A stretch of DNA of 64,000 nucleotides, from NCBI RefSeq assembly GCF_003334765.1, contig NZ_QOWT01000011.1. One strand, 5' to 3'. The notes under the pieces are model-generated. The model was not told the DNA's origin and made no database searches. It worked only from the letters and a program-made list of their open reading frames with translations. Position 1 is the first letter of the stretch. Each line of letters starts with the position of its first letter. This document shows, piece by piece, positions 31,380-34,166 of the stretch. This DNA is from Escherichia coli. GTDB lineage: Bacteria; Pseudomonadota; Gammaproteobacteria; Enterobacterales; Enterobacteriaceae. The position numbers were made by a program, and so were the translations under genes.

Positions 31380-31617
31380 GCCAGAACATAACCGTAGGTC
31401 GGATAGGGCGTTCACGCCGCATCCGGCAGCCGTTGCCTGATGCGACGCTGTGCGTCTTATCAGGCCTACAAACGGAACATAACCGTAGGTCGGATAAGGC
31501 GTTTACGCCGCATCCGACAGCCGTTGCCTGATGCGACGCTGTGCGTCTTATCAGGCCTACAAACCGGAACATAACCGTAGGCTGGATAGGGCGTTCACGC
31601 CGCATCCGGCAGCCGTA
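31380..31617. repeat. Cluster of about 2.5 tandem REP/BIME units (period about 91 bp)
   Basis: Repeated ...aacataaccgtaggtcggatagggcgttcacgccgcatccggcagccgttgcctgatgcgacgctgtgcgtcttatcaggcctacaaa... between yhdP and tldD. Confidence 0.9.
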
Positions 31618-31642
31618 AAAAATCCTCTACTGCAGTAACTAA

Positions 31643-33103
<1,461 letters not shown>

Positions 33104-33144
33104 TAATTTCACTATTTTCAGAAGGATAATTAATCTTTCTACGT

Positions 33145-33182
33145 GCACGAACGGTCCCCTCGCCCCTTTGGGGTGAGGGTTA
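33145..33182. repeat. GC-rich inverted-repeat element between convergent tldD and aaeR
   Basis: tcccctcgcccctttggggtgagggttagggtgagggg; a related copy lies at 51010-51041. Confidence 0.6.
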
Positions 33183-33236
33183 GGGTGAGGGGAACCCGTT
33201 GGCACAGGTTTGTACAACGTAACAGTACAATATGAA

Positions 33237-34166
33237 TTACTTCTCTTTCCCGCGCCCGTGCATCTCCTGAAACAATTTACCGACCTCAACAAAATAATCC
33301 GTCAGCGAGTTGATCACGACCTGTACCTTCAGCGGCAGCTTATCTTTTTCGGTATATAACGCATAAACCGGGCGTGGATCTGACTGGTAACGCGGCAGCA
33401 GGATCTCCAGCTCCCCACGATTGATCTCGTTGATCACCCACATCAGCGGCACGTAGGCGATCCCGGCACCCGCCGTCAGCCAGCGCACCAGCGTCATCGG
33501 ATCATTAGTCACAAATCTTCCTTGTGGGATCAGGCGAGTCGAGATCCCTTCCGGTGCGATCAGTTCAAATTCATTGTCGGGCCGCACGCTGTATTCAAGC
33601 CATGAATGACTACTCAAATCGGCGGGTTTTTCCGGTATGCCGTATTGTGTGAGATAGCTTTTCGCGGCGCACACCACCATTGGCATCGCGCCCAGACGGC
33701 GGGAAAACAGGCTGGAATCCTGCAACGCGCCGACGCGGATCACCACATCCAGACCGTCGGCAATCAGGTCGGGGGCTGGAATTCCGGTAACCAGATTGAC
33801 GCTCAAACCTGGGTATTCTTTCAGCATTTTGGCTGTCAGCCCGGCGAGAACATTTTGTGCCATAGTTGAAGAACAGCCAATGCGTAGCGTCCCGATGGGG
33901 GTGTTATTGAAGGCATACAGTTGCTCATGAACATCCTGCACTTCATGAAGCATACGACGGCAGCCCTGGTAGTAAATTCTACCGGCTTCGGTCAGGCCAA
34001 TGCTGCGTGTGCTACGGTTTAACAGCTTTACCTGCAACTCATCTTCCAGTTTTGATACCGTCTGACTGATGGACGAAACGCTCATCTGTAGCTGTCTGGC
34101 GGCGGCGGTAAAAGAGCCAAATTCAACTACTTTGGCAAACACCGACATGCGTTTTAGTCGTTCCAT
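33237..34166 (-). CDS. aaeR: LysR-family transcriptional activator of aaeXAB
   Basis: 309 aa ORF with N-terminal LysR HTH (FAKVVEFGSFTAAARQLQMSVSSISQTVSKLE); divergent from aaeX. Confidence 0.92.
   Translation of the reverse strand: MERLKRMSVFAKVVEFGSFTAAARQLQMSVSSISQTVSKLEDELQVKLLNRSTRSIGLTEAGRIYYQGCRRMLHEVQDVHEQLYAFNNTPIGTLRIGCSSTMAQNVLAGLTAKMLKEYPGLSVNLVTGIPAPDLIADGLDVVIRVGALQDSSLFSRRLGAMPMVVCAAKSYLTQYGIPEKPADLSSHSWLEYSVRPDNEFELIAPEGISTRLIPQGRFVTNDPMTLVRWLTAGAGIAYVPLMWVINEINRGELEILLPRYQSDPRPVYALYTEKDKLPLKVQVVINSLTDYFVEVGKLFQEMHGRGKEK

Follow-up and report, generated by a model that had tools for sequence, protein, structure and literature searches.

The BoxC repeat of enterobacteria was named in the 1990s and has since been described as PIT (potential intrastrand triplex) by Maher and co-workers in 2000 and as TMECO (triplex motif of E. 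coli) by Holder et al. (2015; PMC4666352). The TMECO consensus is CCCTCNCCC-N3-6-GGGNGAGGG-N3-GGGNGAGGG, and 23 copies have been catalogued in strain MG1655, all of them intergenic (PMC4666352). [quoted passage not shown] In work cited in PMC4666352, PIT elements did not act as terminators in reporter assays, had no promoter activity, and left RNA polymerase unaffected. The sole association found for TMECO is with higher local variability among strains, and where TMECO pairs are inverted, portions of the two units have often been lost and a stable stem-loop is left, a decay termed the 'palindrome effect' (PMC4666352).

REP/BIME (PU) elements resemble BoxC in being short, G+C-rich, extragenic palindromes at gene ends or between cistrons, with RNA 3′ ends at their base. 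They are unrelated to it in sequence, REP being of the GCCGGATG... type, have no third block, and occur at far higher copy number. REP has known partners; we know of none for BoxC. Intrinsic terminators are likewise G+C-rich stem-loops at gene 3′ ends, with RNA 3′ ends just downstream. BoxC differs from these in the absence of a U tract, in the lack of terminator activity reported for PIT (PMC4666352), and in the presence of a Rho-dependent region downstream.

In a preliminary description of a 64,000 nt stretch of E. coli DNA, referred to here as the window, a G+C-rich dyad between the convergent genes tldD and aaeR (site 1) and another between nanA and nanT (site 2) were proposed to be one shared element of a distinct small repeat class, possibly with a role in mRNA stabilisation. 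The family is real but was already defined, and the finding is thus already known: the motif is BoxC. The explanation that best accounts for the data as a whole, and which is considered highly probable, is that site 1 is a catalogued BoxC copy with a probable barrier role at RNA 3′ ends and that site 2 is a single-copy descendant of BoxC.

Identity of site 1

The window is from an E. coli K-12-like chromosome, and the 601 nt around site 1 are 100 % identical to MG1655 and many other strains. The window + strand corresponds to the MG1655 minus strand, the MG1655 coordinate being 3,423,686 minus the window coordinate. Site 1 lies between the convergent genes tldD (31658-33103, +) and aaeR (33237-34166, −), which in NC_000913.3 is between the ends of aaeR (3,390,449) and tldD (3,390,583). 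Site 2 is in the spacer between nanA (50110-51003, +) and the nanT ATG at 51113. The gene context was therefore described correctly for both sites. The position of site 2, 51010-51041, was also exact, while direct look-up in the window places the site 1 string tcccctcgcccctttggggtgagggttagggtgagggg at 33155-33192, which is 10 nt on from the 33145-33182 originally given.

Both strings are present with the arms that had been described. The pattern CCCCTCGC-N(3-20)-GGTGAGGGG matches twice in the window, at sites 1 and 2 only, against 0.00 matches expected from 100 dinucleotide-preserving shuffles. Taken by itself with up to one mismatch, the arm GGTGAGGGG was found 10 times in the window against 9.1 expected, which is no excess over chance. 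A chance match was rejected as an explanation for the two sites. The features of site 1 are as follows.

33156-33192, + strand: BoxC/PIT/TMECO copy no. 14, type A with one mismatched triplet, identical to Table 1 entry 14 of PMC4666352
33156-33166: pyrimidine block CCCCTCGCCCC, followed by the loop TTT at 33167-33169
33170-33179: purine block 1, GGGGTGAGGG, followed by the loop TTA at 33180-33182
33183-33192: purine block 2, GGGTGAGGGG
33143-33205, no strand assigned: extended palindrome around the core, from the RNA fold and a flank comparison of nine MG1655 copies

Site 1 thus has three blocks, one of pyrimidines and two of purines. The three-block consensus is matched exactly at 33157-33191, and this is the sole match in the window. 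Entry 14 in Table 1 of Holder et al. (2015; PMC4666352) is CCCTCGCCCCTTTGGGGTGAGGGTTAGGGTGAGGGG, at MG1655 3,390,529-3,390,494, antisense, type A, with one mismatched triplet; it is the same as window positions 33157-33192, letter for letter. As a copy of BoxC, site 1 is ordinary and had been catalogued before: it is identical to the listed copy in sequence and position, has the TTA second loop of type A, and is intergenic, as are all 23 copies. It has every testable defining feature of BoxC/PIT/TMECO, and the correct label for it is BoxC/TMECO no. 14 rather than a member of a distinct class. Identity with an already defined class of known function had been named beforehand as a finding that would speak against a new class; the first half of this, a match to a class already defined, is what was found.

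One difference from the rest of the family is in the inner purine block, which is GGGGTGAGGG at site 1 and GGGGAGAGGG in nearly all other listed copies. This turns the mismatch into a G.T (G.U) wobble and thereby makes a tighter hairpin. In the RNA fold, pairing can continue beyond the core between GTGC.C.AACGG (33143-33154) on the left and CCGTTGGCAC (33196-33205) on the right. Site 1 and other type A copies among the nine from MG1655 that were compared have ..ACGGTC as left flank and GAA as right flank.

The absence of a repeat annotation at this locus is uninformative, since the NC_000913.3 feature table lists only CDS features for the region and a known BIME is missing as well. In an Rfam search (evalue mode) of window positions 30000-54000 there was no match at site 1 or site 2, and the only hit was REP/naRNA4 at 31397-31624 (77 bits). 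Either site being a REP element was rejected because there is no Rfam naRNA4-type match and the sequences are unrelated. Likewise, a terminator scan found no stem with a T tract at site 1 or site 2, the tails being GAACCCGUUGG, GACCGUUCGUG, and AAAUAAACGC. In the absence of a T tract, canonical intrinsic terminators were rejected for both sites, in agreement with the preliminary description.

Copy number and distribution of BoxC

A 44 nt query centred on site 1 was found at a median of 19 places per genome across 5426 complete E. coli genomes and at 22 places in the MG1655 record, as expected of BoxC, a dispersed repeat with about 20-30 copies in each E. coli genome. All nine of the MG1655 BoxC copies examined are intergenic. 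The site 1 locus itself is intact at ≥90 % identity in 5415 of the 5426 genomes.

The two-arm pattern from the preliminary description was also used to scan one genome per GTDB species. This gave at least 126 matches, with none from Enterobacteriaceae among the matches listed. At least 65 of the matches listed are the same 37 nt three-block unit, in Pseudomonas sp. dw_612 (at least 20 copies), Asticcacaulis, Devosia, a Hyphomicrobiales MAG, a Thermodesulfobacteriota MAG, uncultured rumen bacteria, and others; this wide taxon spread is in agreement with the distribution reported previously (PMC4666352). At least about 60 of the matches listed are unrelated simple hairpins of 20-36 nt, from Streptomyces, Bacteroidia, Chloroflexi, and others, and two arms alone therefore do not define the family. 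The distinction between the three blocks of site 1 and the two arms of site 2 was not drawn in the preliminary description.

In Pseudomonas sp. dw_612, the 37 nt core (at least 20 copies) has a conserved 15 nt left flank, AACAACTCGGTCAGT, and a looser right flank. Due to these conserved flanks, the repeat unit in this genome is longer than the core.

RNA 3′ ends at site 1 and at other BoxC copies

Mapped RNA 3′ ends are available for both genes that converge on site 1 (TRS Supplementary Data 2-4, PMC10687069).

About 33187 and 33204 (MG1655 3,390,499 and 3,390,482), + strand: tldD mRNA 3′ termini
About 33145 (MG1655 3,390,541), − strand: aaeR mRNA primary 3′ terminus; the tldD termini are likewise classed as primary

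The tldD terminus at about 33187 is a few nucleotides 3′ of the hairpin made by blocks 1 and 2, and that at about 33204 is at the end of the extended palindrome. The aaeR terminus is approximately 11 nt 3′ of the BoxC core as read on the other strand. All of these termini are within approximately 12 nt of the base of the site 1 hairpin. On the tldD strand, a Rho termination region with a Rho score of 6.0 has been reported at 3,390,148, approximately 350 nt beyond site 1, a position that is placed only to within an interval of 800 nt (Adams et al., 2021; PMC7815308). Site 1 is not among the curated dominant 3′ ends of the same study (PMC7815308).

Read as RNA, site 1 would fold into a G+C-rich hairpin with no U tract, and this hairpin marks where the mRNAs of the two converging genes end. 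Transcription would pass through site 1 and be halted further downstream by Rho, and 3′-to-5′ exonucleases would then trim the transcripts back to the stable hairpin, as at REP elements. Since 3′-to-5′ exonucleases typically trim Rho-terminated transcripts (PMC7815308), and since the ends are at the foot of the hairpin with a Rho region downstream, it is most likely that the BoxC hairpin acts as a REP-like exonuclease barrier that fixes the tldD and aaeR 3′ ends.

The position of the termini, just past the hairpin on both strands, would also be expected if site 1 were a non-canonical bidirectional intrinsic terminator, without a U tract, for tldD and aaeR, and the 3′ ends at other BoxC copies in two independent data sets can be read in the same way. 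This is unlikely, however, as there is no T tract on either strand, PIT elements have neither terminator activity nor an effect on RNA polymerase (as cited in PMC4666352), and BCM-sensitive readthrough on the tldD strand peaks approximately 350 nt further downstream. In addition, the TRS end statistic is only 0.5-0.8 at the site 1 termini, compared with about 1.0 at the nearby canonical yhcN terminator (PMC10687069).

Mapped 3′ ends are not confined to site 1. In the TRS data they are present at the BoxC copies of hrpB and alx (PMC10687069), and in the Term-seq data of Adams et al. there are 3′ ends at the lldD copy, at the copy antisense to rluF, at the hrpB-side copy, and at a degenerate copy at 847,200 (PMC7815308). 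An RNA-level role for BoxC can be tested, given that several copies have 3′ ends mapped to their base and that site 1 has them on either strand; the function of BoxC has so far been discussed mainly in terms of DNA triplexes. The role in mRNA stabilisation suggested in the preliminary description, or one at RNA 3′ ends, is thus plausible for site 1, where the termini are at the hairpin base; at site 2 there is no mapped 3′ end. Both results come from the comparison with 3′-end maps that had been advised for the two loci.

The degenerate copy, CCCTCTCCCCTATGGGGAGAGGATTAGGGTGAGGGG, is at MG1655 847,200 on the − strand, outside the window, and is absent from the 23 listed TMECOs. In each of two growth conditions, a strong orphan 3′ end was mapped to it by Term-seq (Adams et al., Supplementary file 1).

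A role for BoxC as DNA was proposed by Holder et al., in which a transient intrastrand triplex stalls replication or repair and makes the locus unstable. The single strand does form a stable triplex in CD and NMR and blocks DNA polymerase in vitro, and TMECO loci are more variable than control spacers among 56 E. coli strains (PMC4666352). The proposal is nonetheless doubtful here, as no triplex is detected by in vivo DMS footprinting or in duplex DNA (PMC4666352), the site 1 locus is intact in all but 11 of the 5426 E. coli genomes, and site 2, having no third block, cannot form a triplex; furthermore, instability is a property of the element and not a demonstrated function.

Structure and conservation of site 2

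Site 2 is a simple hairpin in the nanA-nanT spacer, characterized by RNA folds, the consensus scan, orthologous spacers, and alignment.

51007-51043, + strand: site 2 simple hairpin
51007-51021: 5′ arm, GTTTCCCCTCGCTCG
51022-51028: loop, CCCCTAC
51029-51043: 3′ arm, CGGGTGAGGGGAAAT

The stem has 15 pairs, of which three are G.U, and the loop is 7 nt. The 44 nt sense-strand RNA folds with a dG of −26.8 kcal/mol (z −5.2). Due to the three G.U pairs, which become C.A on the other strand, site 2 folds well only on the mRNA-sense strand (z −5.7 sense and z −1.1 antisense for 66 nt folds). Its present place is in the intercistronic RNA of nanA and nanT, before the mapped 3′ end of nanA.

The 44 nt site 2 query was found at a median of one place per genome, making it single-copy, with no other copy found by BLAST in E. 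coli. It is present at ≥95 % identity in 5409 of 5426 E. coli genomes. Some difference from the 44 nt query is seen in 989 out of 5413 genomes, and in the variant strains aligned, three in number, all differences are outside the 15-pair stem. Variation within E. coli is too low for covariation in the stem to be tested. In one genome out of 5426, that of E. coli 01G17CRGN001 (NZ_CM148329.1 550,532-550,543; L134), a deletion has removed the 3′ end of nanA, the entire spacer including site 2, and the 5′ end of nanT, and both genes are annotated as partial pseudogenes.

No 3′ end is mapped at the site 2 hairpin in the data of Adams et al. or in the TRS data (PMC7815308, PMC10687069), and a literature search for a described nanA-nanT stem-loop found nothing relevant. 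Cells for the 3′-end maps were grown in LB, M63 glucose, or minimal EG, media in which the nan operon is not known to be induced.

Origin of site 2

Site 2 has in common with BoxC its two arms (pyrimidine and outer purine), the CCG found in the type B loop, and flanking sequence, with TTT upstream and GGGGAAA downstream. It differs in having two blocks only, one pyrimidine arm and one purine arm, with a duplicated TCG(C) in the left arm, in being single-copy, and in being absent from the published list. In the three-block consensus scan, site 2 had no match to a pyrimidine block with a purine block, and no double purine block even at three mismatches.

Orthologous nanA-nanT spacers were compared using affine-gap pairwise alignments, as MAFFT misplaced BoxC parts. 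A metagenome scan for nanA-nanT spacers from outside E. coli contributed 14 loci, three of which are nan spacers. In Pseudocitrobacter faecalis (L124, 2395-2540), the nanA stop is immediately followed by two full, divergent BoxC units, first an antisense type A and then a sense type B. A divergent BoxC pair is also present in the spacer of a metagenomic enterobacterium (L149), and Kluyvera-type sequences (L126, L142) have a single BoxC with a degenerate third block. At the outer edges of the Pseudocitrobacter BoxC array, both junctions correspond to those of E. coli (TGAGTTGTTT|CCCCTC... and ...CCGGGTGAGGGGA..AAACGCATC), the left one as TGAGTT(G/T)TT..CCCCTC and the right one as CCGG(G)GTGAGGGGA..AAACGCATC. 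Aligned together with its flanks, site 2 scored 30.6 against the Pseudocitrobacter spacer, compared with about 13 ± 4 for shuffled sequences, none of 1000 reaching this score. In a gapped global alignment against a non-orthologous BoxC, the MG1655 type B copy at lldD-trmL, the score was 36.6 compared with 13.9 ± 3.9, and again no shuffle out of 1000 reached it.

Site 2 is therefore probably a BoxC-derived remnant and not a full member of the family. The alternative is that it is an independent, locus-specific RNA hairpin that looks like BoxC because hairpins of a C-run and a G-run recur, and that it has no ancestry in common with site 1. In favour of this, BLAST gives a single copy, the three-block consensus is not matched even with three mismatches allowed, and the unrelated hairpins of 20-36 nt described above (at least about 60) fit the same two-arm pattern; moreover, the arms are wobble complements of each other, so that there are about nine independent bases in the comparison rather than 17. 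Evidence against an independent origin is the likeness in the flanks and in the CCG of the type B loop, the score of 36.6 that no shuffle equalled, and the bona fide BoxC units that lie between the same junctions in the orthologous spacers of three other enterobacterial lineages. It is accordingly judged improbable.

Descent of site 2 from BoxC could have followed one of two routes. In the first, a type B copy would have lost one purine block when its tandem CCGGGG(A/T)GAGGG units slipped. Alternatively, an inverted BoxC pair would have collapsed onto its two outer, mutually complementary blocks, a route suggested by the decay of inverted pairs to stem-loops described in PMC4666352. Both routes fit, and the optimal alignments differ between the two comparisons. 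The spacers compared with that of E. coli are from other genera, and no intermediate form was seen among them.

The claim that the two sites are one shared element can be retained, as the probable reading, in so far as they belong to one repeat lineage, but site 2 is not an equal member of it, since it fails the consensus, is single-copy, and has no mapped 3′ end. The correct label for it is a BoxC-derived hairpin and not a new repeat class.

Palindromic repeats in the nanA-nanT spacer

Across the nanA-nanT spacers compared (L122-L133, L142, L144, L149), a different palindromic repeat is present in almost every genus sampled. REP or BIME sequences are in the spacers of Citrobacter, Yokenella, Enterobacter, K. 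oxytoca, Trabulsiella, Lelliottia, and one Salmonella serovar, and typical Salmonella enterica has no palindromic repeat there. The sequence upstream of nanT is of two types, ...CATACCAAAGCG-hairpin-CGCGGGAGACTC and ...ATCGTCGGGAGAGTAAA. This single intercistronic site thus hosts different palindromic repeat families according to genus and documents a probable route of decay from a BoxC, or BoxC pair, to a simple stem-loop.

It is conceivable, although on balance doubted, that BoxC units, including decayed ones, are orientation-independent hairpins lacking a U tract that define or stabilise RNA 3′ ends in the manner of REP, and that the nanA-nanT spacer of Enterobacteriaceae is selected for the presence of some palindrome. 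If so, this would explain both the palindrome in almost every genus sampled and the invariant BoxC remnant in E. coli, and it would provide an RNA-level function for BoxC, the function of which has been unclear since it was first described.

Two divergent type A/type B pairs, that at lldD-trmL (MG1655 3,780,928-3,781,256) and that in the Pseudocitrobacter nanA-nanT spacer, share the spacer motifs GTATGTAC.CC and TTTTCT before the type B unit. From sequence comparison, a BoxC pair and its spacer may form a composite repeat of approximately 130 nt.

That BoxC is a mobile (MITE-like) unit, or one recognised by a protein such as a dedicated nuclease or transposase and conserved because that protein reads its sequence, is very unlikely: the near-identical 37 nt core across Gamma- and Alphaproteobacteria, Thermodesulfobacteriota, and uncultured rumen bacteria, often with genome-specific conserved flanks (such as AACAACTCGGTCAGT in Pseudomonas sp. 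dw_612), and the internal spacer motifs shared by the divergent pairs of E. coli lldD-trmL and Pseudocitrobacter nanA-nanT, which suggest the composite unit of approximately 130 nt, would be in keeping with it, but no partner protein is known for BoxC, Holder et al. (2015; PMC4666352) did not find it to be associated with transposons, phages, or plasmids, and BoxC positions are mostly stable across E. coli strains (PMC4666352).

A second hairpin upstream of nanT and a BIME upstream of tldD

A small hairpin, GTGGGCATCGCCCAC, is present at window positions 51082-51096, 17 nt upstream of the nanT ATG and followed by 51097-51112. It is conserved in E. coli, Salmonella, Pseudocitrobacter, Kluyvera, K. 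aerogenes, and the metagenomic enterobacterium L149, with one compensatory change (ATGGGC..GCCCAT in Salmonella) and a G.U intermediate in K. aerogenes. An 'alternative primary' 3′ terminus of nanA at MG1655 3,372,582, which is window position 51104 (PMC10687069), and a weak Rho termination region at MG1655 3,372,577, with a score of 2.1 (PMC7815308), are both just 3′ of this hairpin and over the nanT Shine-Dalgarno sequence. The hairpin at 51082-51096, and not site 2, looks like the real nanA/nanT attenuation point.

In the yhdP-tldD spacer, at window positions 31397-31624, three REP/BIME units match Rfam naRNA4 (RF02564), two of them above the gathering score (77.3 and 71.1 bits). A TRS terminus labelled 'tldD 5′ UTR' (MG1655 3,392,117-121, about window 31565-31569) is inside this BIME.
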